Source of the DNA: Deltaproteobacteria bacterium
Lineage (GTDB): Bacteria; Bdellovibrionota; FAC87; UBA2466
Assembly: GCA_043776735.1 (NCBI GenBank)
Contig: JAYVQZ010000008.1
Span: 1 to 40,634 of the forward strand
Reading direction: 5' to 3'
DNA: 40,634 nt
The translations under genes were made by a program, and so were the position numbers. Positions 10,879 to 24,382 of this stretch are shown one piece after another. Under the pieces are notes generated by a model. It was not told the DNA's origin. It made no database searches and worked only from the letters and a program-made list of their open reading frames with translations. Numbering within the stretch: position 1 is the stretch's first letter; each line of letters opens with the position of its first letter.

Positions 10879-11553
10879 ATGAGCCTCGAAACAAAAAGCT
10901 GGCGGCCGACTCTACGTCTCTTTGCTAAGCAAGAAACCGAGTTTAAAGACCCGGATGGGAAAAACGCTTCTATACGATGGACGTTCGATTGCGAAAAAAT
11001 GCCGTTTTTTCTGAAACGGGTGCAGTGCACGATGTCAGGGTTCGGGCTAAAATCCGTCGGATTCTCTGCGGATTTCACGTTCATAAATGCCTCTCGCAAA
11101 GCGCTCGCCGAAGCGTGGGAACGTCTTTGGTATGAGCGAGTAAAATCAAAACAGATCGAGCTGCCGTTTCCTGTTTTATCTTCGAATGGTTTTGCTGCCG
11201 GACCATCGATGGAAATGGCTCGCGAATGGTCGAGAGGAGAGCTTATTGAACGAGCATTAGTACTTCATTGTTGGCATGAAATGAGCGGTTGGAAGTCTTT
11301 ACTCGCAAAACAGCCAGAAGTTTGGCTTTTCAAAAAATACCTGGCGCGGGACGGATGGAGTCTAAAGCTGTTTCAGCTAGGTGAGACTGAAAAGGGAAGC
11401 TCCCTAGCCGGGTTGGCTCAGCACGAGACAAAAGGATCTGTATTTGATTCCGTATACGCGCCACCGAATTCTTGCTCGGTGAGGAGCCTGCTTATTTCCT
11501 TGTTAAGAATGATCACGCAACCTACGGATTCACTGATATTACTTCCGGCATGA
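10879..11553 (+). CDS. Compact YcaO-superfamily protein, ending at an in-frame TGA (see extension 11554-11799)
   Basis: GFSADFTFINASRKALAEAWER matches the G..x..A..A..EA.ER pattern. SSNGFAAGPSMEMAREWSRGELIERALVLHCW matches the sNG.AaG...eA....E.iER....W pattern. The ATG abuts the SBP stop (TGAATG). Confidence 0.6.
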   Translation: MSLETKSWRPTLRLFAKQETEFKDPDGKNASIRWTFDCEKMPFFLKRVQCTMSGFGLKSVGFSADFTFINASRKALAEAWERLWYERVKSKQIELPFPVLSSNGFAAGPSMEMAREWSRGELIERALVLHCWHEMSGWKSLLAKQPEVWLFKKYLARDGWSLKLFQLGETEKGSSLAGLAQHETKGSVFDSVYAPPNSCSVRSLLISLLRMITQPTDSLILLPA

Positions 11554-11864: not shown

Positions 11865-12114
11865 ACAAATCATTTACCTCGGGAGTGTGGTTATTTTCGG
11901 CAGCTTTGGGGTGCCTAGAATCAGTGCAGCTGTTAATAAATTTTGACAGGGGCATGGCTGTGCACAGGCAGAATACACCTCTAAATATTCGTAATTGCAT
12001 GGTTTAATCAAATATCGGAAATGGGGGTTTGGCACCGACTTTGCAGACTACCTAAGTATTAATTTCATCGACACACAACCTTTAGTCAGCCTCTCCGGCA
12101 CCCCAGAACCCCGA

Positions 12115-12813
12115 TTGAAACCGCATTTTACTTTGCGGGCATTGAGCGTTGGTTTTTGGCTCACCTTAATCGTGGCGGTTGTCGGCTGTGGATCCAAACA
12201 CAATACCTGGCCAGCCCATGTGGCCTCAATTTCCGGATTTTCCGATGCCGAACGCCTGCAAATAATGGCCGCGGTGAACCAGATGAACGACGCCGCGGAT
12301 CAGCCTCTTCTTATTCTAGACAACTCAGCTCCCGCAAACGCCTATACGATTACCATCCAAAAGCATGAGGCATGGACCGATTCCAAAGTGGGCCTCTCCC
12401 ACCGAAGTGAAGAAAATTGCGCGATTGAAATCTCTAGCGAGCTTTTTGAATCCCATTTAGCAGGCTTTTTAGATACGACAGTGCGCCACGAATTTGGGCA
12501 TTGCACTGGTCTGGGTCACAGTTCAGAAAAAGGGGCCTTGATGTTTGCCACCTCGGTAGCCTTCGATGCCTACAGCGATTCTGCCCTAGACGAATTTTTC
12601 GCCGATATGCAAAAATCCGTGGCTCCCGCATACCGCGGCGAAGGAAATGCTCCGGCAACAACCACCGCCACCTCTGATCTCCAAAAAACGACCGATACCA
12701 CCACCACTCCGCCATCCGATAAGCCTCCCGTGTCCCCCTCTCCCCAAGGGGACGGTTCCCATGACCACCGCTCCCACGGCCGCGGCTCCCACGAGCATCA
12801 TCATCACCATTAA
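12115..12813 (+). CDS. Metzincin-type zinc metalloprotease lipoprotein with a Thr/Pro linker and a His-rich C-terminal tail
   Basis: HEFGHCTGLGH matches HExxHxxGxxH, with a downstream ALMF as a possible Met-turn. The in-frame TTG at 12115 gives KPHFTLRALSVGFWLTLIVAVVGC, a lipobox-type signal. The ORF track starts at ATG 11995. The tail is HDHRSHGRGSHEHHHHH. Confidence 0.7.
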   Translation: MKPHFTLRALSVGFWLTLIVAVVGCGSKHNTWPAHVASISGFSDAERLQIMAAVNQMNDAADQPLLILDNSAPANAYTITIQKHEAWTDSKVGLSHRSEENCAIEISSELFESHLAGFLDTTVRHEFGHCTGLGHSSEKGALMFATSVAFDAYSDSALDEFFADMQKSVAPAYRGEGNAPATTTATSDLQKTTDTTTTPPSDKPPVSPSPQGDGSHDHRSHGRGSHEHHHHH

Positions 12814-12968: not shown

Positions 12969-13877
12969 ATGAGTGATTCCCTGGTCTCCAATACAATAAA
13001 TCCGCTCAAACAGGCCCTAGCGCTAAAACCGATATTCCCCGGGGGAATTCGGCGGGTTTGCTACCCCACGGCAACGATCGATCTTAAAGGCGAAGTGGCC
13101 CGTCACCTCACTACGCGCGGGGTGACCGATCAACCGCTGCCTTTAGAGACCCTTCAGCTACGAGTTAGCGCAGAAAATCAAATTCCTAAGGACGGCCCCC
13201 TTAGTCCCATTTCCTTGCAGCTTGAATTTACCGAACCCGGCGTCCAAAAGGCTTACCGCAAACTCGTGGGTTACTTAGCCCAAGAGGTTCTCGGATTTGA
13301 CGTCGTTTTTGAACGCAGCCCTTTTCTTCGCTTTCACTTTCCCGCCCGCCTGCCCGACAAATACCGCTCGACCGGGGGGGTAATCCTGGCTCATCATAGC
13401 GATACCTTATTGGGAGACTACTTTGAGCAGATCAACTGCTGGCTCCCCTTAAGCACCTGCGCGGGAACCCGCTCCTTGCAAATAGCCTCCTTCGACGACA
13501 GCATCGGCATTCTCACCGAGTTTGGCCGAGGTCTCGACTTCGATCTTTCCCGCTTCGCCCAGGCCAGACAGCCCTTTTATGATCGGCTTTATTCCGACGA
13601 TGCTTTTCAACAACGGGTTCTGCAAGCTTGCCACCCCTTGGAGACCCAATACGGAGAGGTTGTCCTCTTTGACCCTCGTACCATCCACGCCACGGCCGAA
13701 AACTTAGACACCCAAACCCGGGTGAGCATCGACTTTCGTTTGATCCCTCTCACCGCCTACAATGAGATCATGGAACGGTTTCGTAGCGAAGGAAAAACAC
13801 CGGTGGAGTTTGAAGGGCAGTCGCTGGCACGCGGAGGGTACTTCGATGTGAAGACCGCCTTTGAGGCCCTGGAGTGA
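12969..13877 (+). CDS. Fe(II)/2-oxoglutarate-dependent oxygenase (PhyH-like fold)
   Basis: HHSD provides an HxD motif, with a distal His in DPRTIHATAEN and an Arg in TRVSIDFR. This spacing fits the 2OG-oxygenase facial triad plus the 2OG-binding Arg. Confidence 0.55.
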   Translation: MSDSLVSNTINPLKQALALKPIFPGGIRRVCYPTATIDLKGEVARHLTTRGVTDQPLPLETLQLRVSAENQIPKDGPLSPISLQLEFTEPGVQKAYRKLVGYLAQEVLGFDVVFERSPFLRFHFPARLPDKYRSTGGVILAHHSDTLLGDYFEQINCWLPLSTCAGTRSLQIASFDDSIGILTEFGRGLDFDLSRFAQARQPFYDRLYSDDAFQQRVLQACHPLETQYGEVVLFDPRTIHATAENLDTQTRVSIDFRLIPLTAYNEIMERFRSEGKTPVEFEGQSLARGGYFDVKTAFEALE

Positions 13878-16800
13878 ATCTTTCCCGGTTTCTCAGTAAC
13901 CTTTTTGTCTCCTGGATAAGGCCCCTTCTTACGGCAGGATCCCAACGAAAGCTGACCCTTGCGGATTTTCCCGTTGAGCTTGGCAAAGAGTCCGTCAATC
14001 GCTGCGCTGACGAATTGGTCCGCGCGCTGGAGGCGACGCCAAACGACCCTCTTTCTAAAACGCTTGGGAAAGTCTACCGGGGAATCCTCAGTGGGGCACT
14101 GTTACTAGGGTTGCTTCATGCGGTAACAAGCCTTGCGCTTCCCTTTTTACTTCAAGCGTTCCTCAATGACCTGAGCACTTCGGTAGCCCCACTTTCCCAA
14201 AAAATCTTGCTAGCCCTCTCCCTTTTTTCCATGAGCCTTCTCTCCTGGTTGCTCATCCAGCACTGCTTTTTTGTGGGCGGTAGACTGGCCCTTCGCGTTC
14301 GAGCAGGCCTTGTCAATGCCATCTATAAAAAGCTATTGGGAAGCTCACCGGCAAACGACGATTCCTCCTCTGCCTACTTCAACTTGATCGCACGAGATGC
14401 CCTTAAGGTGGGCTCAGCCGGACAGATGTTGGTACTCACCGTGATGTCGCTCGTGCTTATCGTTGGCGGTGTGCTTCTGCTCTATCAAATTGTAGGAGTT
14501 TCTAGCCTTGCTGGGTTTTTGGTCTTAGTCCTATTGGCCCCTCTCTACCGGAAGCAGGCGCGGGCGATGGAGGCTACGACCGGCGATCTGTTTCATATCT
14601 CCGATCGTCGAGTGGGGTTTCTCTCCGTCGTCTTTCAAGGGATTCGGGCAATTAAATTGGCCGGCGTTGAATCCATCCTTGGAGATCAGGCCCGAAAGAT
14701 CCGAGCCCAAGAGTTAGTAAAACTAAACCGTATTGCCATTCAAACCGCGTTCTTAAACCTTCTGTTTCAAAGCAGCCCCATCGCGGTGGCTTTAGTCACT
14801 TTCACTACGGCAGCCTTGTTGGGTCGGCAGCTTGGACTGCCGGAGGTTTTGTCCGCCCTTGCCACGTTTGCCATCCTGCGAGCCCCTCTGCTGCACCTTC
14901 CCAATCTCATCGTCGCTCTTTTAGAAGGACGAGTTTCTCTTAATCGAATTGAGTTGGCTCTGCGCGGACAAGAGCGGCTTCCTGTGACGGCTGGGACAGC
15001 GCCCCTGGGATCGGTTTCTTTAAAAGCCGCGACATTTAGTTGGAAAACTCAAGGCAAAGCGGTCCTTTCTGAAATCTCGTTAGAGATTACGCCTGGCGAG
15101 TTGGTGGCTGTTTTAGGGCCGGCCGGCAGTGGCAAAAGTTCCCTGCTCCATGCCCTCCTTGGTGAAATGGGCGTTCAAGAGGGAGAGGCCGCCCTATCGG
15201 GCGAAGTCTCCTACTCCTCCCAACAGCCGTGGATGGTCAATTCGACAGTAAAAGAGAATATCGTTTTTGGAGCGGAGTGGAATTCTGCCCGCTACAGCGA
15301 GGTAATCTCAGTCACAGGCCTTGAGCGCGACTTGGCTCAGTGGGCTTCGGGCGACGCTACGGAAGCTGGGGAAAACGGCCTGGCCCTTTCCGGAGGTCAA
15401 CGCCAGCGCATTGCCTTAGCCAGAGCCCTTTATCGAAACGCCGATCTCTGCCTCCTCGATGATCCGTTTAGCTCCCTCGATAACCGGACGGCCACCCACT
15501 GTTTTGAAAAGGGAGTGCTGGGATTTCTTAAAGGGGCCACACGAATCCTGGTCACCCACCGGCATGATTTTGCCCAGCAGGCCGACGTGGTTTTGTGGAT
15601 TAAAAATGGCCGTATCGTTCGCAGCCTAAGAGGTCAGCAGATTAAAAAGCTTCACGAAATTCCTGCAGAAGTTGCCCCTGAGCCAACTCGGGCGTTAGAG
15701 CGGGCGCCTGCCAGAGGCATGATCACGGCAGAAGCCGATGCGGAGGGCTCGGTCCCCTTGGATCGTTACCGCCAGTACGGCGCAATGCTCGGAAGTTCTT
15801 TAGTCTTAGCCTTAATCCTTGGGATCTTTTTGCTACGGGAAGTTTTTAACGTGGGGGCCGATACCTGGATCTCCTATACGACGGCACGTGCTGGGATCAC
15901 GCCCACAATCATTTTAAGTGGGTTTGCACTCTTGGGCCTGCTGACCTCGGTGGCCACTTACGTGCGATCGCGCATGGTCATGGCAAAAACGGTAGTCGCT
16001 GCAGGGACCCTTCACGAGGGCATGCTCAGCGGGGTTTTAAATTCACCATTCTCTTTTTTTGAGGCCAATCCCTTAGGCCGGCTGCTCAATCGTTTTGGAA
16101 AAGACCAGGCAGCAATCGATCTCGAGGTCGGCACAAAAACCCTAGAGTGCCTCAATGTGATCTTTCTCTTAGGCTCAAGCCTTATCCTAATCGTGGTGGC
16201 CACGCCCGTGGCTGTGTTGGTGATGTTTCCTCTGGGGGTGGTCTATTACCGTTTGCAACTCTTTTTTAGAGCCACATCACGCCAGATAAATCGAATGGAA
16301 GCGCTTTCCCAATCCCCGCTTTTCGCCCACGTTTCAGAAACTCAAGGAGGACTGACGACGATTCGGGCGATGAGGCAGCAGGATCGGTTTCGGCAGGGAT
16401 TGAGCGAGCGGCTTGAGATCAACCAACGAATTCTAATCGCCCGCTTGGCCGCCGATCGTTGGCTCAGCATTCACCTAGACTCTTTGGGGGCGCTTTTGGT
16501 GGGCATCACCGCCGTATTAGCTGCCTGCTTTAGCGATGCCATTGGTTGGGAGCTAGCGGGACTCTCTGTCACCCATGCGCTTGCCGTGACGGTGACTTTT
16601 GCCAGAGCAGTCCACACCTTTGCCGAACTCGAATGTGGCATGAACTCCGTAGAGCGGGTGCAAGAGTATGCAGGACTGCCGGGGGAAGGGTTCAAGGGAA
16701 ATGGCCAGCCCGCCTCTCCTCCAGTTCAGTGGCCTGACGCAGGAAGAGTGGAAATTAAAGACTTGGAACTGCGGTACCGCCCCGATCTCGAGCCCTCGTT

Positions 16801-17449
16801 GAAAGACATTTCCTTCACCATCGGCGCAGGTGAAAAACTCGGCGTGATTGGTCGCACCGGCTCGGGCAAGAGCAGTTTGTTATTGGCCATTTTCCGGCTG
16901 GTGGAACCCACCGGCGGTAACGTTTTTATCGATGGCATCGACGTAAAAACTTTGCCTTTGGCGGTGCTTAGATCCCGTCTAGCCATTCTGCCGCAGGAGC
17001 CCGTTCTGTTTCCGGGTCCTCTGCGCAGTAGTCTAGATCTCAAAAATGAGTATTCCGATAGCGAGATTTGGAAGGCCCTTAATGCGGTTCAAATGAAAGA
17101 GGCGGTAGAGTCATTGCCCGGCGGCCTGAGTTTGGAACTTCAGCCCGATCTGTTTAGCCTGGGGCAGCGACAACTACTCTGTCTGGCTAGGGTCATTCTA
17201 CGAAAGCCCAAAATTCTTTTTCTTGATGAGGCCACCGCTAATCTCGACCCCACCGCCGATAAACTGGTGCAGGATGCCGTGGAGCGCGAGTTTGCTCACT
17301 CTACCGTCATTACCATTGCCCATCGCCTACAGACCCTCTCACGCGCCCATCGGATCGTAGTCATGCAGGATGGCCGAGTGGCTGAAATCGGGACGCCTAC
17401 TGAGCTCTCTCAAAAATATCCTGAGTTGCAACGGGGAGGTGCGGCATGA
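13874..17449 (+). CDS. Full-length (TMD-NBD-TMD-NBD) ABC transporter of the ABCC/MRP type
   Basis: N-terminus FLSNLFVSWIRPLLTAGSQRKLTLADF. NBD1: GPAGSGKSS, LSGGQRQRIALARALY and LCLLDDPFSSLD, with Asp in place of the catalytic Glu. NBD2: GRTGSGKSS, FSLGQRQLLCLARVILRKPKILFLDEATANLD. The start overlaps the upstream stop by 4 nt. Confidence 0.9.
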   Translation: MNLSRFLSNLFVSWIRPLLTAGSQRKLTLADFPVELGKESVNRCADELVRALEATPNDPLSKTLGKVYRGILSGALLLGLLHAVTSLALPFLLQAFLNDLSTSVAPLSQKILLALSLFSMSLLSWLLIQHCFFVGGRLALRVRAGLVNAIYKKLLGSSPANDDSSSAYFNLIARDALKVGSAGQMLVLTVMSLVLIVGGVLLLYQIVGVSSLAGFLVLVLLAPLYRKQARAMEATTGDLFHISDRRVGFLSVVFQGIRAIKLAGVESILGDQARKIRAQELVKLNRIAIQTAFLNLLFQSSPIAVALVTFTTAALLGRQLGLPEVLSALATFAILRAPLLHLPNLIVALLEGRVSLNRIELALRGQERLPVTAGTAPLGSVSLKAATFSWKTQGKAVLSEISLEITPGELVAVLGPAGSGKSSLLHALLGEMGVQEGEAALSGEVSYSSQQPWMVNSTVKENIVFGAEWNSARYSEVISVTGLERDLAQWASGDATEAGENGLALSGGQRQRIALARALYRNADLCLLDDPFSSLDNRTATHCFEKGVLGFLKGATRILVTHRHDFAQQADVVLWIKNGRIVRSLRGQQIKKLHEIPAEVAPEPTRALERAPARGMITAEADAEGSVPLDRYRQYGAMLGSSLVLALILGIFLLREVFNVGADTWISYTTARAGITPTIILSGFALLGLLTSVATYVRSRMVMAKTVVAAGTLHEGMLSGVLNSPFSFFEANPLGRLLNRFGKDQAAIDLEVGTKTLECLNVIFLLGSSLILIVVATPVAVLVMFPLGVVYYRLQLFFRATSRQINRMEALSQSPLFAHVSETQGGLTTIRAMRQQDRFRQGLSERLEINQRILIARLAADRWLSIHLDSLGALLVGITAVLAACFSDAIGWELAGLSVTHALAVTVTFARAVHTFAELECGMNSVERVQEYAGLPGEGFKGNGQPASPPVQWPDAGRVEIKDLELRYRPDLEPSLKDISFTIGAGEKLGVIGRTGSGKSSLLLAIFRLVEPTGGNVFIDGIDVKTLPLAVLRSRLAILPQEPVLFPGPLRSSLDLKNEYSDSEIWKALNAVQMKEAVESLPGGLSLELQPDLFSLGQRQLLCLARVILRKPKILFLDEATANLDPTADKLVQDAVEREFAHSTVITIAHRLQTLSRAHRIVVMQDGRVAEIGTPTELSQKYPELQRGGAA

Positions 17450-18435
17450 GCGCGACTCTCCTAGAATCCCCCCTCGCTTGCGAGGCCTTTGGACAACTTT
17501 TTCGAAAGCTTTACGGGGTGTCCGGGTCCATTCTGCCCTTGGGGCAGTTGCTTCACTGGCGCAACCGTCTGGGGATAGCCACCCCTGAACTAGATGCTAT
17601 TCCCACTTTTGTCTTTGGCGGATACTTTTATGGCTTTTCCTCCCCAGTGCCCGAGCAGGCCGAGCTAAGCGAAGTGTCCCGTTTGGTGCTTGGCAAAACC
17701 GCAGGCCAAATTTTGGTTCCCTGCGTACGCGAAGGGGTGAACGTAGACGCCTTAGTCGCAGAGGGTTTTCAAAAACTACCCTGGTTTGTGGAGTCTGTTT
17801 TTGAGATCGATAAGGGCGTAGAAGCTGATTTGGCCTCTCGAGTCTCTCGAAATCAAAGGCGCGATATCCTACGTTTAACTCGTCGTTCGGAAGAGCAGTT
17901 TGAACTTCAACTTTTCGAAGGAGAGGCCCTACGCCAAAACCCCTGGGTATTTGCCAAGGCGGCAGAACTCCACGCCCACAATCTGACCAAGTACAGCCAC
18001 GCCCTTAACTTCTATAGCCAAGAGATCCTCACTCTTCTCCTCCATTCGGGGTTAGCCGAACACCTGCTGATTGCGTTGCGAAAAGACAAGAATGGAGAAT
18101 TTGTCCAGGCCTCTGTTAATTTTATCGATCGCCCACGTAAACAGCTCTTTCTCATGGTGCAGGGGATCAACCGCGATCTCGTTCCCCCAGGACAAAACCT
18201 CTACCTAGCTGAGACCTATCAGCTTTATCAGTTTGCTCAAAAGCAGGGGATCCAAGAGGTCTACTTGGGGCGGGGAGGCCAAGAGGCCAAACAGCGAATG
18301 GGCGCCAATCGTTTTCATCTTTTGAATTTATGGATTAAAAGTCAAGGGCAGGCAGCTAGCGAATTTGCCGCCATTGTCGAAAAATCTCAGTCGGTGCTGG
18401 CAACGCTTCCGCCAGACCTAAGGAGCCAAGAATGA
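17446..18435 (+). CDS. GNAT-fold transferase (FemAB / BioF2-like, Acetyltransf_6-type)
   Basis: The pattern SRNQRRDILRLTRRSEEQF...FIDRPRKQLFLMVQGINRD...YLGRGGQEAKQRMGA resembles the Acetyltransf_6/FemAB-like family. It has 4-nt overlaps with both neighbours. Confidence 0.45.
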   Translation: MSATLLESPLACEAFGQLFRKLYGVSGSILPLGQLLHWRNRLGIATPELDAIPTFVFGGYFYGFSSPVPEQAELSEVSRLVLGKTAGQILVPCVREGVNVDALVAEGFQKLPWFVESVFEIDKGVEADLASRVSRNQRRDILRLTRRSEEQFELQLFEGEALRQNPWVFAKAAELHAHNLTKYSHALNFYSQEILTLLLHSGLAEHLLIALRKDKNGEFVQASVNFIDRPRKQLFLMVQGINRDLVPPGQNLYLAETYQLYQFAQKQGIQEVYLGRGGQEAKQRMGANRFHLLNLWIKSQGQAASEFAAIVEKSQSVLATLPPDLRSQE

Positions 18436-18770
18436 GCCTTCCGCATATTTTGATGATCGGTGCCTACGATGACTACATGGGAGCCTTTGGATCTCTGGGC
18501 ATTCGCCTCACGCTCTTTCAGAAAGAGGATTCCCTCACCCCTTTGCAAACGGCCACAGCAGAGAAGGTTTTCACCCTTAATTATGAAAATGTTGAGGAGT
18601 GCCTTCGGTTTGCCATCGCCCGCCATGAAACGGCGCCGTTCGATGGCGTAGTTTCTTTTACAGAGTATGGCCTTGAGGCGGCAGCCCGGATTCAAAACGT
18701 ACTGCGCGTTCGGGAAAACCCATGGCTCCGGTTAAAGCCACTCGCGATAAAACGGAAATGCGACGGCTGA
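18432..18770 (+). CDS. Pre-ATP-grasp N-terminal domain, probably the 5' part of a frameshifted ATP-grasp ligase gene
   Basis: ILMIGAYDD...VVSFTEYGLEAAARIQNVLRVRENP looks like the Rossmann-like N-domain of an ATP-grasp enzyme. Meaningful similarity ends at about 18720, where the frame of 18722-19633 takes over. Confidence 0.5.
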   Translation: MSLPHILMIGAYDDYMGAFGSLGIRLTLFQKEDSLTPLQTATAEKVFTLNYENVEECLRFAIARHETAPFDGVVSFTEYGLEAAARIQNVLRVRENPWLRLKPLAIKRKCDG

Positions 18771-19633
18771 TTTCTCACCTCGACGTGGGAAGGGCCGAGT
18801 TTATGCTCTGTTCTCATTTTGAAGACCTCGCGGCGTTCTGGCACAAGTTGAATGGACCGCTTATTCTAAAGCCCGCCAAAGGATCGGGAAGCGAAGGGGT
18901 GTCACTCATCCGGCGAACGGAAGAGCTTGCTAAGGCCTGGGTTCGCAGCACAGCGCCTAAGGTAATGCCGCTTATTGCCGAGGAGTATTTCGACGGGCCG
19001 GAGTTTAGCGTTGAGTCGCTCACCGTGGACGGCACGCATGAGATTCTTGCGGTCACTCAAAAAATCACCACGGGAGAATTAGGCTTTGTTGAGACCGGAC
19101 ATCAAATGCCGGCGCCGATATCAAAAGCCGTCTTCCAACAAATGGCCACTTCGGTTACGCAGTTTTTACAAGCCGTTGGGCATGCCGTTGGTCCGGCACA
19201 CACCGAGCTTCGCCTTACTGCAAAAGGACCCCGAATTATTGAAAGCAATACCCGACCAGGCGGCGATTTTATTTGGCAGATGGTTGAACTGGTCTGCGGG
19301 GTGGATCTCGTAGCGGCCACACTCGCGGATTTAGCTCACGTCCCCCAGCCAAAGAGAAAGCCCGTGGCCCCGGCGGCAGCGGTTCGGTTTTTTGCCTACG
19401 CCAATGGGCGAGTCACCCATTTAGACCAAACAGAAAAAGCCGCAGAGCTTCCCGGCATCGTTCGTTTTCATTGCAGCCTCGCCGTCGGCGCAGAGCTGGG
19501 CCCGCTGAGATCCTCAGACGATCGCCAAGGATTCGTGGTGGCGATCGGGGAAAGTCTGGCTCAGGCTATGGAGCGGGCTGACAATGCTATCGCCGCGGTC
19601 CGCCTCGAGCTTGCTCCCCAGACAGCCCAGTAA
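18722..19633 (+). CDS. ATP-grasp ligase core (L-amino-acid-ligase-like)
   Basis: ATRDKTEMRRLI, LILKPAKGSGSEGV, IAEEYFDGPEFSVE, HTELRLTAKGPRIIESNTRPGGDFIWQMVELVCGVDL. Confidence 0.75.
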   Translation: MAPVKATRDKTEMRRLISHLDVGRAEFMLCSHFEDLAAFWHKLNGPLILKPAKGSGSEGVSLIRRTEELAKAWVRSTAPKVMPLIAEEYFDGPEFSVESLTVDGTHEILAVTQKITTGELGFVETGHQMPAPISKAVFQQMATSVTQFLQAVGHAVGPAHTELRLTAKGPRIIESNTRPGGDFIWQMVELVCGVDLVAATLADLAHVPQPKRKPVAPAAAVRFFAYANGRVTHLDQTEKAAELPGIVRFHCSLAVGAELGPLRSSDDRQGFVVAIGESLAQAMERADNAIAAVRLELAPQTAQ

Positions 19634-20662
19634 GCGATTATTGCAGGCTTTAGTGCCCACCGAAATGCGCAGGGAATTGGGCAGGGCAAATGAGCTATCA
19701 GCCACAAGAATTCCACCCTCCAAAAGAGCGTTGTAGGCCTTGCGCCCATTTTCAAACTGAACCAATAAAAAATTGGAGTCGCTAGGCAATACGCGAATCA
19801 CTCCTGGCAATTGCTCTAGGCCAAGCGACAATCGATTGCGCTCTTTTACCAGGCACTCCACCTGTTCTTTCATCATGGAGGCGTTGGACAGCTTCACCGC
19901 CACGGCATGTTGTGCCGCCTGATGAAACGCAAAGAGGGGCTGCAACCGCTGGACGGTATCGATCACCTTCGCGTTAGCTAGCAGGACACCAGCGCGTAGG
20001 CCGGCTAGCCCCCAGGCCTTGGAGAAGGTTCTTACCACCACAAGGTTAGCGTACTGGCGAAGCAACGATAGGCTTGAGGCCTTCTGAGAAAATTCGATAT
20101 AGGCTTCGTCAACGACGACTAGGCCGGGCGCTTTGGCGAGCAGCGTTTCTACTTGAGAGATCGAGATCGAAGTCCCCATCGGGTTGTTGGGAATGCACAA
20201 GAAGATGAGTTTTGCCCCAGTAGCCACAAGATCATCGGTACTGGTGATATCAAACTCTGTTCCCTGCAAAGGCACTTCACGAACCTCTACCCCGTGCGAT
20301 CTTGCGCAGTGGGCGTAGAAGGGAAATGTGGGGCTTGCAATAGCAATGCTGTCTTTTCCCGGCTCGCAGAAGGCTCGGATCATTAACTCCAAGGCGGCAA
20401 TGGAACCCGGAGTAAAAAGCACCTCCTGGGGACCCGCCAAGTTTAAGTAACAGGCCAGTTGCTCTTGCAGCCTCACGGGAGCCGGATTGGGGTACTCGCT
20501 ATAAACGCCACCATACGGATTGGTATTGGAGTCGAGCCGAATCAGATCTTTCTTATAAAGCGCGGCCCTACGAATTGGATCGAGTATGGGGAGAGTTTTT
20601 ACACATTCCCGAGCCAGAGGGTGAAGGGTTTCTCCTGCAGGAGGTTGAAGCACAACGCTCAT
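19514..20662 (-). CDS. HisC-like class II PLP-dependent aminotransferase
   Basis: LDSNTNPYG. The PLP-lysine motif is VVRTFSKAWGLAGLRAG. SLRISVGT. I prefer the ATG at 20662 (MSVVLQPP), which overlaps the upstream stop by 4 nt. The 3' end overlaps the convergent ATP-grasp gene by 120 nt. Confidence 0.8.
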   Translation of the reverse strand: MSVVLQPPAGETLHPLARECVKTLPILDPIRRAALYKKDLIRLDSNTNPYGGVYSEYPNPAPVRLQEQLACYLNLAGPQEVLFTPGSIAALELMIRAFCEPGKDSIAIASPTFPFYAHCARSHGVEVREVPLQGTEFDITSTDDLVATGAKLIFLCIPNNPMGTSISISQVETLLAKAPGLVVVDEAYIEFSQKASSLSLLRQYANLVVVRTFSKAWGLAGLRAGVLLANAKVIDTVQRLQPLFAFHQAAQHAVAVKLSNASMMKEQVECLVKERNRLSLGLEQLPGVIRVLPSDSNFLLVQFENGRKAYNALLEGGILVADSSFALPNSLRISVGTKACNNRLLGCLGSKLEADRGDSIVSPLHSLSQTFPDRHHESLAIV

Positions 20663-21744
20663 AAATAGTTTCCTTTCGTCTGATCTGAGGTGACCGCAAT
20701 TTCGGCCATTCGGGCGCAAAGCGTATTCATCATATCCCAGCCCTGTTTTTGGACCGTCTCAAGCCGCGTCAGGGAATGGGGATCTAGGTTTGTCAGTAGT
20801 GAGATTCCCATGGTCTCGTGAATCTGATCTCCGTCGTGATGAGTGGCAAAATGGTCGGTCTCTCTGAATTTCGACATGATGGGATGGGCAACGATGTGAA
20901 AAACCGTAGCCGCTGCCTCCAGTACCAAGTGCACTAGGACCAGCTTTTCGGCATTGTCGAGAGTGAGCATTTTCCAGGCAAACCAGCTGGAGGTGGCCTC
21001 TAAAATGGGGTCCCAAACCTTCAACAGGCCCTCGCCCCGATCGCTTGCGAGATTTTCGTTATGCCCAAACTCCTCTTTGAGGTGGTCTTGAAAAATGCCA
21101 GAGTATCTAGGGTCCTCGCAAAAGGCGGAACGGGCAAGCACGGCCCGCTGAAAGAAGTTGGACCACACCTGAATGGTATCAAGCAAGCGGCCTCGCTGAA
21201 TGGGATCATTGACTGCATCCCCAGTAACAAAATTGAAGATGAGATTGTTTTTGTAGGCTTCTCGGTAGATCCGGTTTTTTTCCAGAAGTACAGCCAGCGG
21301 ATCTTTGGCCACTTCAAAGCTCACCCGCGCTTTGTTGCTGTTTTCGTAAAGGCCGTGTCCTTCAAATTGAATGGAAAGGGCCCAGAAGCCTTCTGGCCCT
21401 CCGGTAAATCCATGGTAGGTGTCGCTGTCGACCAGAACTAGGTCGCCTTCTTTAAAAGTAAACTCCGCAGCGCCGTTGGCTTTCCCTGTTCCCTTGGCCA
21501 CGACAATAAAACTCTTTGTGGGATGAATGTGAGTGGCTAAGGATTGGCCATTTTCTAAATGAACCCAGGCCAAAGAAAGGCGCGCAGACTCCGGAATAAA
21601 GGCTGCCACCAGAGGGTGCTTGCGAAAGTCTTTTAGTTGGCCAAGCGAGTGTTCCACGCCGTCCTGAACCACGGAGCGGAGCGTGGGGAGCTCCTCTCGC
21701 GTGATCAGGCGCATCTCACCCTTGGGTAGTGGTGCTAATTTCAT
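20659..21744 (-). CDS. Fusion of an N-terminal cupin and a C-terminal heme-oxygenase-like diiron oxidase/oxygenase (HDO) domain
   Basis: Cupin: GQSLATHIHPTKSFIVVAKGTG and GDLVLVDSDTYHGF, a 3-His type. HDO-like: FQDHLKEEFGH, LVLEAAATVFHIVAH, and ATHHDGDQIHE, which contains H-x3-D-x2-H. Confidence 0.6.
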   Translation of the reverse strand: MKLAPLPKGEMRLITREELPTLRSVVQDGVEHSLGQLKDFRKHPLVAAFIPESARLSLAWVHLENGQSLATHIHPTKSFIVVAKGTGKANGAAEFTFKEGDLVLVDSDTYHGFTGGPEGFWALSIQFEGHGLYENSNKARVSFEVAKDPLAVLLEKNRIYREAYKNNLIFNFVTGDAVNDPIQRGRLLDTIQVWSNFFQRAVLARSAFCEDPRYSGIFQDHLKEEFGHNENLASDRGEGLLKVWDPILEATSSWFAWKMLTLDNAEKLVLVHLVLEAAATVFHIVAHPIMSKFRETDHFATHHDGDQIHETMGISLLTNLDPHSLTRLETVQKQGWDMMNTLCARMAEIAVTSDQTKGNYL

Positions 21745-22406
21745 AAATTTCCTTTTCCATTTCGTTCAATTGACCAATGAATTTCAGAAACCCGCGCCAC
21801 CAGGCAGTCGTCTAGACCCACCTGGTGGCAATAACTTTGCACTTCGTTCACCGTCAGCGCGGCCCTTAGGGATTGGGCAAAAAGCTGACGTTGGTAGCTG
21901 CTGTTTCCTACGGTGTACTTGTCTACGAGAGATTGCCACTCGCTCTCGGAATCTGGCCGCACCAGATCCTTGATCAAAATTGCCGCCCTGGTTTGGGCAA
22001 GACGGGCCAGTTGAATGAAGAACGAGATCGTGTCCGGGATGTGGTGGACGATGCTGTTGGAAAGGATCAGATCGTAGTCCTTTCGGCAGAGAATCCGACT
22101 CTTGACGTTTTCATAGACGAGAGTGATCTGACGCCCTAAACCCGCGGCGGTGACTTTTTTAGTCGCCAACGCAAGCATCTGACTAGAAAGATCTACCGCC
22201 GTAATCTGTAGTCCCGGTATCTTAGTGGCTAACCGGAGAGGAATGTCTGCAGTGCCCGTTCCTAAGTCGATGGCTGAGTTGGCAACTGGCGCCAATGCTA
22301 CGGCTCTCAGGGCAAACTGTTCATTGACCGCACTATTGTCGATGCTGTCGTATTCGATGGCGTCCTCTGCGGTATCCATGACTTCGGGCTCTAGAACTCG
22401 AATCAC
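21741..22406 (-). CDS. Class I SAM-dependent methyltransferase
   Basis: Motif I is AIDLGTGTADIPLRL. Post-I is ITAVDLS. LILSNSIVHH. It has 4-nt overlaps with both neighbours. Confidence 0.8.
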   Translation of the reverse strand: MIRVLEPEVMDTAEDAIEYDSIDNSAVNEQFALRAVALAPVANSAIDLGTGTADIPLRLATKIPGLQITAVDLSSQMLALATKKVTAAGLGRQITLVYENVKSRILCRKDYDLILSNSIVHHIPDTISFFIQLARLAQTRAAILIKDLVRPDSESEWQSLVDKYTVGNSSYQRQLFAQSLRAALTVNEVQSYCHQVGLDDCLVARVSEIHWSIERNGKGNL

Positions 22407-23272
22407 TGTTGTCTCCCCTGGTGTTGAAGCTCCACTAAGTCGGTAATCGCCTGGTCCACTTGTTCCAGATTGTTTACGACAAAGAGCTGTTCTTGATGAC
22501 GAGAGATATGAAAACTCTGTTTGAGCACTTCGCTTAGAGAAAATGGCTTAATCACCGTGTTGCCAGCGATCAAAGACGCCCCTTCTCTAGGGGAGGAGAG
22601 CAGGCCTGCCCCCCAAATGCGGTAGTCTTCTACGGTACCCACCAACCCAAACTCCACCGTCCAAAAATAGAGCCGTTCTAAAAGAGTCTGTTCGCTAGGG
22701 CTCCTCTCCAAAGACGCCACAGCCCCGGCTACCCGTTGTTCGGCCTGGGCTTTGTCGACTGGAGAACTCTTTTCCTGGGCATTGAGTTGGGAGAGCGCGA
22801 CATTAGCGTCATAGAGGGCCACGTCCTCGGCGGTGGACCTGGTTTGTAAGCCCAGTTCCGCAAAGCGTTTAATCAAAGAGCGGTACTCGTTGCTAAACAT
22901 CAAAGGAAGGTGGCCTATCAGATCGTGAATGCGATCGGGAACGGGCGAGTGACAAACATCTTTGGCAGCACGGACATTGTGGGCCAGAGGAAATATCTGC
23001 TGGCTCTGCATTGAATGATAGTTCCCATAGGGGACGTACCCTTCTACAAACTTAGCGCTCCAGCCAAACGATTGGAGTCGCTCTTCAACATGATTTCTGT
23101 CAGGCAATCGGTTCGGGTCAAATTCACATTGTTCCATGCCTGCCAGATAGCGAGGATCTAGCTGATGAGAAACTTGAGAAACAAAAGAGGAATGAGCTCT
23201 TTTAAATTGGGACCAAACAAGGTCACACTCTGAAGCAAAGGCTATATTTGAAATTTCGAACATTTCGGCCAC
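22403..23272 (-). CDS. phhA: Pterin-dependent aromatic amino acid hydroxylase (phenylalanine-4-hydroxylase family)
   Basis: PDRIHDLIGHLPLMFSNEYRSLIKRFAELG contains H-x4-H. LYFWTVEFGLV supplies the Glu ligand. The start may be the ATG at 23263, with GGAG 8 nt upstream. Confidence 0.85.
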   Translation of the reverse strand: MAEMFEISNIAFASECDLVWSQFKRAHSSFVSQVSHQLDPRYLAGMEQCEFDPNRLPDRNHVEERLQSFGWSAKFVEGYVPYGNYHSMQSQQIFPLAHNVRAAKDVCHSPVPDRIHDLIGHLPLMFSNEYRSLIKRFAELGLQTRSTAEDVALYDANVALSQLNAQEKSSPVDKAQAEQRVAGAVASLERSPSEQTLLERLYFWTVEFGLVGTVEDYRIWGAGLLSSPREGASLIAGNTVIKPFSLSEVLKQSFHISRHQEQLFVVNNLEQVDQAITDLVELQHQGRQQ

Positions 23273-23377: not shown

Positions 23378-24382
23378 TCAGGCACGTTGAGCCACAATGA
23401 CACTGAACCCCGAAGGCAGTTCCAGCACCTGGGTTAGGCAAAGGCCGGTCTCCTTAAATAAGTTTCTGTATTCGGATTCGGTTCGCTCCCTGCCGCCTGT
23501 CATTACGAGCATCGTCATATCGACGAGCTTGCTCCAGTGAGGACCTGGTGAAACGGGGATAATCCGCTCGACAACTAGTACTTTCCCGTGGGGAGGAAGG
23601 GCCTCCGCACATCGAGTAAGAATAGCGCGGGCCTGTTGATCATCGCAGACGTGGATCACGCTCTTCATTAGATAGAGGTCGAACCATTTGGGAATGGAAA
23701 CCGTGGCGTCGCCTTCAATGACATTGATACGATCTTCAAGGCGATGGCTTGCTATCACCGCTCTTGCTCCTTTAACGGAGACGGGCAGATCGAAGAGTGT
23801 TGCTTGAAGTTCAGGGTTCTTTTCCAAAAGCTTACAGAGAAAAATCCCGTGCCCGCCGCCCACATCCATAAGGGTAGTTGCCTCGGAAAGATCAAAGGCC
23901 TCAGCCATCTCTTGTGCGGTGGTCAAGGTGATCTCTTCCCAACCGTTATGGAACCTAGAACCCGTCTCCGGATGGTCGGCAAAGTATTCAAAGAGAGGCT
24001 TTCCAAATACGTGGTCAAAGGCGGGCCTCCCTGTCTGAAGGCTATAAAGGAGATCTCCCCACGCCTGGTAGGTCTCTCCTCCGGAAAACATAGAAACCTC
24101 TTGCACCAGAGTTTGGGGATGGTCGCTGCGAAGATACTGGCCACCTTCCGATAGCCGATATAGGCCTGAAGTCTCTTGTTCGACGGCACCGAAGGAGGCC
24201 AGAAATGTGAGTAACCGTCTAAGAGCGCCAAGGTCCAATTTCAAAATGTGCGCTAAGTCTTCAGCAGAATGACCTTCGTGGGCAAGCTGGTCTGCCAGAC
24301 CCACTCTTACCGTGGCAAAGAGCGCGCAAGAATAGTAGTAGCCGTGAGCCAGCTCCCGAAGTTGCTGTCTAGAGTTCGCCAT
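23378..24382 (-). CDS. Class I O-methyltransferase (Methyltransf_2, ASMT/COMT-like, with an N-terminal dimerisation/winged-helix domain)
   Basis: The SAM motif is LMDVGGGHGIFL. DLPVSV. IEGDATVSIP. YLMKSVIHVCDD. KVLVVERI. Confidence 0.8.
   Translation of the reverse strand: MANSRQQLRELAHGYYYSCALFATVRVGLADQLAHEGHSAEDLAHILKLDLGALRRLLTFLASFGAVEQETSGLYRLSEGGQYLRSDHPQTLVQEVSMFSGGETYQAWGDLLYSLQTGRPAFDHVFGKPLFEYFADHPETGSRFHNGWEEITLTTAQEMAEAFDLSEATTLMDVGGGHGIFLCKLLEKNPELQATLFDLPVSVKGARAVIASHRLEDRINVIEGDATVSIPKWFDLYLMKSVIHVCDDQQARAILTRCAEALPPHGKVLVVERIIPVSPGPHWSKLVDMTMLVMTGGRERTESEYRNLFKETGLCLTQVLELPSGFSVIVAQRA

Follow-up and report, generated by a model that had tools for sequence, protein, structure and literature searches.

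The cupin-HDO fusion gene and its two domains

The window considered here is a 40,634-nucleotide stretch of contig JAYVQZ010000008.1 from a Deltaproteobacteria bacterium (assembly GCA_043776735.1; contig G+C about 51%), and at 20659..21744 on its reverse strand it carries a gene in which an N-terminal cupin domain is followed by a domain resembling the heme-oxygenase-like diiron oxidases (HDOs). The gene is one uninterrupted open reading frame (ORF) of 361 residues with an ATG start. A sequence-only reading of this DNA had proposed a cupin-HDO fusion with its domains in the opposite order to those of SznF, and both proposals held: the ORF is intact, Pfam Cupin_2 matches above threshold (residues 60-113; 30.0 bits against a gathering threshold of 27.2), the C-terminal domain has a heme-oxygenase-like (HO-like) fold, and the cupin (residues 11-126) precedes the HDO domain (residues 149-351). 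Each motif quoted in that reading was found in the ORF, namely THIHP (H72, H74), DTYHGF (H111), LKEEFGH (E225, H228), LEAAATVFH (E276) and HHDGDQIH (H302-x3-D306-x2-H309); within LEAAATVFH, E276 is conserved but the trailing H283 is not. Judging from sequence and models, the product is very probably an uncharacterised enzyme in which a single-metal cupin barrel is followed by a two-iron HO-like oxidase domain.

The full-length AlphaFold2 model (mean predicted local distance difference test score, pLDDT, 92.6) consists of a beta-barrel at residues 11-126, a linker and seven helices at residues 149-351. A word-indexed search recovered homologues of the fusion in 99 clusters at 90% identity, with E values down to 1e-124, sizes mostly of 340-390 residues and query coverage of 92-97% in most cases. 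The closest cupin-HDO relatives of the window protein are metagenomic (52-57% identity); the window organism lies outside the set of one genome per bacterial species that we scanned, where the best match was 54% identical (Kofleriaceae).

The cupin barrel is encoded at 21367..21714 (-) and presents a three-histidine (3-His) site formed by H72, H74 and H111. These residues are kept in 83-89% of 144 cupin-bearing members, and of the 63 cupin-HDO ORFs taken from related genome loci, 61 have the complete triad. Where cupins canonically have a glutamate (residue 77), the window protein has a lysine and other members vary, so the putative metal site is 3-His. Triads of this kind occur in O2-using cupins. 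Among solved structures the closest are small metal cupins of a generic kind, including DddK, TM1459, a bacterial hydroxynitrile lyase and SbzM (PDB profile E 1e-5 for DddK and others), and they give no functional specificity. A link to hydroxynitrile lyases was also considered and set aside as speculation: the NCBIfam mandelonitrile-lyase model matched at E 0.001 with 18.8 bits against a cut-off of 140, and the likeness to GtHNL is generic and at the cupin level.

The seven-helix HO-like domain is encoded at 20692..21300 (-) and is supported by Foldseek, ligand alignment and conservation. When modelled separately (pLDDT 89.4), it gave its top superposition with CADD (8va9_A; template modelling score, TM, 0.74/0.77; root-mean-square deviation 2.9 Å over 213 columns). 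AetD (TM 0.70-0.72), UndA (0.70) and PqqC (0.69) were also matched, and TenA proteins fell below CADD and AetD with TM scores of 0.57-0.67. Foldseek assigned a probability of 1.00 to CADD, AetD, UndA and 3dde (TM 0.68-0.77), and all listed structural matches of the domain are HO-like. PF14518, the HDO family that holds SznF and RohS, was matched by 25 of 26 C-domain sequences, including all stand-alone relatives (38-49% identity), with a best E value of 6e-08. The sequence-only reading had named a TenA/PqqC-like non-diiron family as the placement that would count against it; none of the 26 sequences matched the TENA_THI-4 or PqqC Pfam families, and the fold is closest to that of metal-binding CADD.

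The putative diiron ligands form a 3-His/3-carboxylate set spread over three core helices: the first carries E225 and H228, the second E276, and the last H302, D306 and H309. In an alignment of 231 relatives we observed near-complete conservation of E225 (228/230), H228 (228/230), E276 (229/229), H302 (226/228), D306 (224/228) and H309 (225/228). Two candidate second-sphere or base residues, the invariant H221 (227/229) and the nearly invariant H272 (194/228), each lie one helical turn ahead of a ligand carboxylate. The complete HEH-H-E-HDH pattern is found in 52 of the 63 cupin-HDO ORFs from related genome loci; six of the remaining 11 deviate at H272 alone, and five are truncated or misaligned.

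To place these residues against crystallographic ligands, we aligned 60 family C-domains with AetD and MboA using MAFFT L-INS-i, taking the two reference sequences from the supplements of the respective papers. All six MboA ligands (E86, H89, E143, H172, D176 and H181) fell in the same columns as E225, H228, E276, H302, D306 and H309, as did five of the six AetD ligands (D76, H79, H172, E176 and H179 of the set that also includes E140). The H-x3-D-x2-H motif put forward as a ligand source in the sequence-only reading thus coincides with experimentally defined diiron ligands of both enzymes. Local hhalign paired HLKEEFGH with AetD HTQEDAKH (E 0.002) and with MboA YLYDEFGH; global hhalign against these two proteins was meaningless end to end, and the comparison uses the local alignments together with MAFFT. 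The H221 column corresponds to MboA Y82, the proposed base for desaturation (supplementary legend), and to AetD H72, making H221 a candidate catalytic residue. A 2026 survey of HDOs, which compared AlphaFold models with seven reference HDOs, includes in its table the stand-alone relative A0A0C2I6D6, for which at least five ligand positions were matched in 7/7 references (mean 5.86 positions at 1.78 Å). This relative is 46% identical to the window C-domain. The assignment of the C-domain as a diiron HDO is well supported by these sequence and model comparisons.

Recurrence of the fusion and its genomic neighbourhood

An exhaustive search with a C-domain profile hidden Markov model (HMM) over 1.8 billion cluster representatives at 50% identity recovered a compact clade of 325 representatives at E <= 1e-3, 166 of them at E <= 1e-30; set against a reported superfamily size of more than 10,000 members, this number indicates a separate clade. 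We sorted the best 150 representatives with local HMMs and observed 85 with the cupin-HDO architecture, four with cupin-cupin-HDO, 46 stand-alone HDOs plus 10 fragments, three in which a StyA-like flavin monooxygenase is fused to the same HDO domain, and two with HDO-HDO or tandem cupin-HDO arrangements. The principal architecture in this clade is thus an N-terminal cupin with an HDO behind it. Our scan of one genome per bacterial species yielded 74 related loci, most with the same cupin-HDO architecture, in carriers that include Nocardia, Rhodococcus, Pseudomonas, Photorhabdus, Chromobacterium, Legionella longbeachae, Streptomyces, Nostoc, Aphanothece, Kofleriaceae, Coxiellaceae and Bdellovibrionia. 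Recurrence on this scale shows that the fusion is no mis-assembly and disposes of the possibility, raised in the sequence-only reading, that the two domains are separate genes.

The same reading had called the architecture new. Literature searches for a characterised HDO with an N-terminal cupin found none, so the architecture is new among characterised enzymes, but it is already present, without a function, in UniProt/InterPro and in the 2026 HDO survey. UniProt A0A0F4QEA0, a true cupin-HDO member in the survey's sequence file, is 38% identical to the window protein, and its residues 158-368 are assigned to IPR016084. Fold, cofactor type and the pairing of cupin with HDO are all already known, and what the window represents is an uncharacterised HDO clade with its own architecture and a conserved gene cluster.

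Two variant arrangements accompany the main one. The StyA-like fusions P0101 (644 residues), P0105 and P0119 carry an N-terminal domain of about 410 residues ahead of the HDO, and in P0101, the one of the three that was checked, this domain is a styrene/indole-monooxygenase-like flavoprotein (Pfam Smoa_sbd). Elsewhere the HDO is encoded beside such a flavoprotein. Fused or adjacent, with L006 (5527-7390) and Nocardia loci such as L078 (13404-14957) among the instances, this is a second recurrent partnership of the HDO domain. In Bdellovibrionia, the loci L005 (10001-11497; Halobacteriovorax marinus BMS_0808), L051, L061, L066, L069 and L071 encode versions of about 500 residues with two N-terminal cupins; these double-cupin proteins have glutamine in place of H272 and are found without the usual cluster partners.

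Within the window, the fusion gene lies in a series of genes on the same strand. A pterin-dependent aromatic amino acid hydroxylase homologue of 289 residues (22403..23272 (-); Biopterin_H E 9e-24; 204.7 bits against the NCBIfam aromatic amino acid hydroxylase model, under its cut-off) overlaps by 4 nucleotides (22403-22406) a class I S-adenosylmethionine (SAM) methyltransferase of 221 residues (21741..22406 (-); Methyltransf_25/31/12/11). The TGA of the methyltransferase in turn overlaps the ATG of the fusion by 4 nucleotides (ATGA), as the sequence-only reading had reported, and the fusion stop overlaps by 4 nucleotides the likely ATG, at 20662, of a HisC-like class I/II pyridoxal phosphate (PLP) aminotransferase (19514..20662 (-); Aminotran_1_2 E 3e-53; 274 bits against a hisC model cut-off of 276.55). 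These shared overlaps indicate a single operon in which the hydroxylase, the methyltransferase, the fusion and the aminotransferase are coupled in translation. A family-2 O-methyltransferase of 334 residues with a dimerisation domain lies at 23378..24382 (-) (Methyltransf_2 E 2e-46, Dimerisation).

The remaining cluster genes are on the forward strand. An ATP-grasp L-amino-acid ligase gene occupies 18432..19633 (+) as two overlapping ORFs (ATPgrasp_N, ATP-grasp_4, LAL_C2), in agreement with the ATP-grasp genes that had been noticed nearby. A 329-residue protein without family assignment is encoded at 17446..18435 (+), with orthologues in the Sorangium and Aphanothece clusters (42-47% identity). 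Searches against Pfam, NCBIfam and the PDB, the last by sequence and by profile, gave no match for it; its relatives are named in databases 'BioF2-like acetyltransferase domain' or 'CelD/BcsL family acetyltransferase', and on the strength of these names it is probably a GNAT/Fem-like acyltransferase. A full-length two-half ABC transporter of 1191 residues at 13874..17449 (+) has orthologues in L001, L003 and L008 (1218-1250 residues, ABC_membrane and ABC_tran domains) and is by these domains a probable exporter. Its start is overlapped by 4 nucleotides by the gene for a PhyH-like protein of 302 residues (12969..13877 (+)), which has a weak match to PhyH/2-oxoglutarate-Fe(II) oxygenases (E 0.003), is 46% identical to a Sorangium cluster protein, and is probably a divergent Fe/2-oxoglutarate oxygenase of the pathway. 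Just upstream of the cluster we also noted a 224-residue ORF (10879-11553 (+)) whose YcaO match stays below the gathering threshold (23.7 bits; threshold 25.7) and a 272-residue ORF (11995-12813 (+)) with a match to matrixin-type metallopeptidases.

We then surveyed the neighbourhood by calling and clustering ORFs in 75 loci, comprising the 74 genome loci and the window. The commonest neighbour, found across phyla in 30 of the 75, is the 330-residue protein without family assignment, followed by ATP-grasp ligases (27), a class IV aminotransferase (24), the two-half ABC transporter (22, with a median gap of 84 nucleotides where present), the family-2 O-methyltransferase (17), a tryptophan-dioxygenase-like (TDO-like) protein (12), a PhyH-like oxygenase (11), the HisC-like aminotransferase (10), a Rieske oxygenase alpha subunit (10) and a StyA-like monooxygenase (7). 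An aminotransferase lies within 10 kb in 34 of the 75 loci, an aromatic-type enzyme (O-methyltransferase, TDO-like, Rieske or StyA-like) is present in 35, and a GNAT-like protein or ATP-grasp ligase in 34.

The window's own subclade is more uniform. The HisC-like aminotransferase directly adjoins the fusion in all nine of its loci (median gap 27 nucleotides), with the two genes in either order, and does so also in L085 and L086. An aromatic-ring tailoring enzyme of some kind is always present in this subclade: the pterin-dependent hydroxylase occurs in the window, Sorangium, Coxiellaceae, Kofleriaceae and L085 (loci L001, L008, L012 and L085), and flavin monooxygenases take its place in L010 and L086. 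In cyanobacterial loci (Aphanothece) the fusion stands beside a tryptophan halogenase and a flavin monooxygenase, a pairing described for the skt cluster around SktA. Stand-alone and StyA-fused members of the HDO clade associate with indole/styrene-type monooxygenases.

Proposed function and alternative readings

The aminotransferase, aromatic hydroxylase or tryptophan halogenase, TDO-like, StyA-like and O-methyltransferase partners point to an aromatic amino acid substrate. We propose, with a probability of roughly 0.6, that the fusion is a bifunctional oxidase with two centres and probably three irons, which acts on a modified aromatic amino acid and whose working is nearest to that of AetD and SktA; the proposal is drawn from sequence, models and analogy. 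That the substrate derives from an aromatic amino acid is, taken by itself and on the neighbourhood, somewhat better than an even bet, and the cluster as a whole probably builds a small peptide from such a modified amino acid. Any specific reaction that might be named for the fusion is unlikely to be the right one.

Under this proposal, the HDO domain would bind dinuclear iron through E225/H228, E276 and H302/D306/H309 and activate O2, as other HDOs do, via a peroxo-diferric intermediate. AetD and SktA suggest as substrate an alpha-amino acid whose amine and carboxylate would together chelate one of the irons, and its backbone could be oxidised by N-oxygenation and/or by oxidative C-C fragmentation or decarboxylation, with H221 and H272 probably serving as second-sphere or base residues. 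The cupin would hold a mononuclear metal on its 3-His triad and most likely carry out a second step on a labile HDO product or on a precursor, following the logic of SznF through an independent fusion. Within the pathway, phenylalanine, tyrosine or tryptophan would be ring-hydroxylated by the pterin-dependent hydroxylase (in relatives, modified by a flavin monooxygenase or tryptophan halogenase) and then methylated; the fusion would act together with the coupled PLP aminotransferase, which may interconvert carbonyl and amine just before or after it; the ATP-grasp ligase and the GNAT-like protein would add other amino acids or acyl groups; and the ABC transporter would export the product.

Several observations weigh against this proposal, beginning with the C-domain itself. 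The Foldseek E values, at 4e-4 to 1e-2, are modest, and the matches are interspersed with TenA and PqqC structures that score almost as high as the HDOs, so the fold alone is no proof of a diiron site and the ligands must decide. The window's own C-domain has no Pfam match even at E <= 1, being too divergent for PF14518, and when the PDB was searched by the protein sequence itself, by a profile of its full length and by one of the C-domain, cupins alone came back at significant E values and no HDO, the C-domain profile giving nothing relevant. The TenA and PqqC scores, the missing Pfam match, the best TM score going to CADD, and the existence of mononuclear enzymes with the HDO fold such as FlcD and HamA would be compatible with a C-domain that is no O2-activating diiron enzyme at all, whether TenA/PqqC-like and metal-free, mononuclear, or self-sacrificing with Mn/Fe as in CADD, or with the cupin as sole catalyst. 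We consider this very unlikely given that the six canonical ligand positions show 98-100% conservation and line up with diiron ligands defined by crystallography, that the TENA_THI-4 and PqqC families are missing from the Pfam matches of 26 C-domain sequences, that the published screen scores the 46%-identical relative as a full ligand match, and that cupin-less stand-alone versions of the domain exist. The ligand alignment is itself fragile at 10-16% identity, with AetD E140 one column off E276. With respect to the cupin, 46 of the best 150 representatives lack it and about 11-17% of metagenomic cupin-bearing members are short of one of the three histidines, which suggests that it may be accessory rather than catalytic.

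The genomic evidence is also uneven. The ATP-grasp ligase gene carries one frameshift near 18713-18722, across which residues 1-95 and 93-371 of the Sorangium orthologue align in different frames (tblastn); it adjoins short homopolymer runs (GGGAAAACCC) and may be a sequencing error or mark a real pseudogene. Among the 74 genome loci, 25 have none of the listed biosynthetic partners, and the context in the Photorhabdus/Chromobacterium group looks catabolic, with about ten loci (Photorhabdus, Chromobacterium, Stellaceae and Sedimenticolaceae) carrying Rieske alpha and beta subunits, a family III CoA-transferase, TauD and a major facilitator superfamily (MFS) transporter. Both features would be expected if the family were mainly catabolic or detoxifying, oxidising an aromatic or indolic compound, with its placement in the window cluster secondary. 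We judge this improbable, since in the window and its nearest relatives the fusion belongs to a coupled operon that also encodes methyltransferases, ligases and an exporter and whose conservation extends across Myxococcota, cyanobacteria and Coxiellaceae, and ATP-grasp and GNAT-like genes accompany it in Pseudomonas, Rhodococcus and Nocardia loci as well. In L031, L035, L036, L042, L053 and L082 the Rieske-type context lies about 1-5 kb downstream of the match, and it may be catabolic or belong to some pathway other than that of the window. The sequence-only reading had compared the protein with SznF and suggested an enzyme that N-oxygenates, forms N-N/N-O bonds or fragments its substrate; the general inference of O2-dependent N-oxygenation or fragmentation may yet hold. 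In its SznF-specific form the protein would be a domain-swapped analogue, in which the methyltransferase would N-methylate a guanidino or amino substrate, the HDO would N-hydroxylate it and the cupin would rearrange the product to an N-nitroso or N-N compound. In favour of this scheme, the protein has the two domain types of SznF and a 3-His cupin, its gene is coupled in translation to that of a methyltransferase upstream, ATP-grasp ligases lie nearby, as in the szn cluster (the HDO survey's positive control for HDO plus ATP-grasp), and N-oxygenation is common HDO chemistry. Neither domain, however, is specifically SznF-like: SznF appeared in the full-length profile search of the PDB only at E~3 over about 30 residues (profile positions 290-321), gave no match with the C-domain profile and was absent from the top 50 Foldseek matches of both models, which argues for an independent fusion and not a permuted SznF. 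The first-helix H-x3-[DE]-x2-H resembles AetD and differs from the E215...H225 of SznF. Homologues of the methyltransferase were found in only five related loci, all of them in the window's subclade (L001, L012, L008, L014, which is the same record as L008, and L085), and the gene abuts the fusion only in the window and the Kofleriaceae contig L012; no arginine-related or nitrogen-donor genes are present, and the conserved partners are aromatic-ring enzymes and aminotransferases. The specific analogy of methylated arginine with N-N or N-nitroso chemistry is not supported, and we give the SznF-type scheme only the slimmest chance of being correct.

Characterised HDOs number only about a dozen, and nearly every one brought new oxidative chemistry, including nitrile, alkyne, azetidine, N-nitroso and olefin formation. 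The family described here is a second, independent cupin/HDO fusion with both predicted metal sites intact and a conserved cluster in culturable genera, and so offers a testable entry to a new enzyme reaction and to uncharacterised amino-acid-derived metabolites, as well as a genome-mining lead; the partner protein of about 330 residues without family assignment deserves study in its own right. A further possibility, which we regard as tentative and on balance doubtful, is that the fusion is a new three-metal bifunctional enzyme performing a two-step oxidation unseen in HDOs, and that it marks an undescribed, widespread class of small peptides. Were this so, the diiron domain might for example fragment or N-oxidise a backbone before the cupin catalysed a rearrangement or cleavage, and the peptides would be made with the family-less GNAT-like transferase and ATP-grasp ligases in Pseudomonas, Rhodococcus, Nocardia, Streptomyces, myxobacteria and cyanobacteria. 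The family overturns no concept, as fold and cofactor type are already known.

Comparison with characterised systems

Two described systems were tried as models for the cluster and rejected. The Pseudomonas-type six-gene locus was compared with the mangotoxin (mbo) operon and is a different one, since MboA is a stand-alone HDO that goes with a reductase, two ligases and a deiminase and lacks a cupin. A cassette for beta-methyl amino acids of the MarG/MarI/MarH kind, in which the cupin is an epimerase, found no support: no MarH or StnK3 occurred in 57 PDB matches, the cupin here retains its 3-His site, and the O-methyltransferase showed no more than generic SAM-domain similarity to a keto-acid C-methyltransferase model. 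One paper (PMC13149037), on a tRNA deacylase and with hydrazine-synthetase cupins, proved unrelated to the fusion.

Among individual enzymes, CADD (CT610), a self-sacrificing Fe/Mn p-aminobenzoate synthase, provides the best superposition of the C-domain, but it is only 10-11% identical, stands alone and consumes its own tyrosine and lysine, and the window context holds no hint of folate synthesis. UndA and BesC, C-C-cleaving HDO desaturases and lyases, share the fold and bind carboxylate or amino-acid-type substrates to Fe1; the ligand pattern of UndA is E-x2-H ... E ... H-x3-D-x2-H. Both differ from the window protein in having no detectable sequence similarity to it, no cupin and other gene clusters. 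MboA matches in all six ligand columns and in the motif around the first ligands (DEFGHDE in MboA, EEFGHNE in the window protein), and it too belongs to a small-peptide cluster with ATP-grasp ligases, with members of the fusion family present in the HDO survey's sequence set. In contrast to the fusion, MboA acts on a tripeptide, needs a dedicated reductase, MboB, has no cupin, and carries Y82 where H221 is invariant here; no MboB-like reductase gene was found in the window cluster.

A 2026 review describes SznF as the sole characterised HDO to possess a cupin, which is C-terminal, and gives its HDO ligand set as 3-His/4-carboxylate with an extra glutamate from an auxiliary helix. The window protein resembles it in uniting a dimetal HO-like domain and a cupin on one chain, in a cluster with ATP-grasp ligases, and in the principle of placing two oxidative steps on a single chain; the cupin site of SznF is likewise 3-His. 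The two differ in their reversed domain order, in length (361 residues against 471 for the shortest SznF chain in the PDB) and in gene context, which in the window concerns aromatic amino acids and not methylarginine.

The closest parallels in proposed working are AetD and SktA. AetD superposes with a TM score of 0.70-0.72 at 15-16% identity, among the highest identities of the structural matches, and carries H-x3-[D/E]-x2-H on its first and last ligand helices (H72/D76/H79 and H172/E176/H179), for which the window protein has the counterparts H221/E225/H228 and H302/D306/H309. The sequence similarity to AetD is weak: hhalign gives a probability of 14% and an E value of 0.002, and its alignment covers no more than the first 80 residues. 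The cyanobacterial relatives of the fusion resemble SktA in adjoining a tryptophan halogenase and a flavin monooxygenase. Both enzymes stand alone, at about 240 residues, without a cupin and without coupled aminotransferase, ligase or exporter genes.

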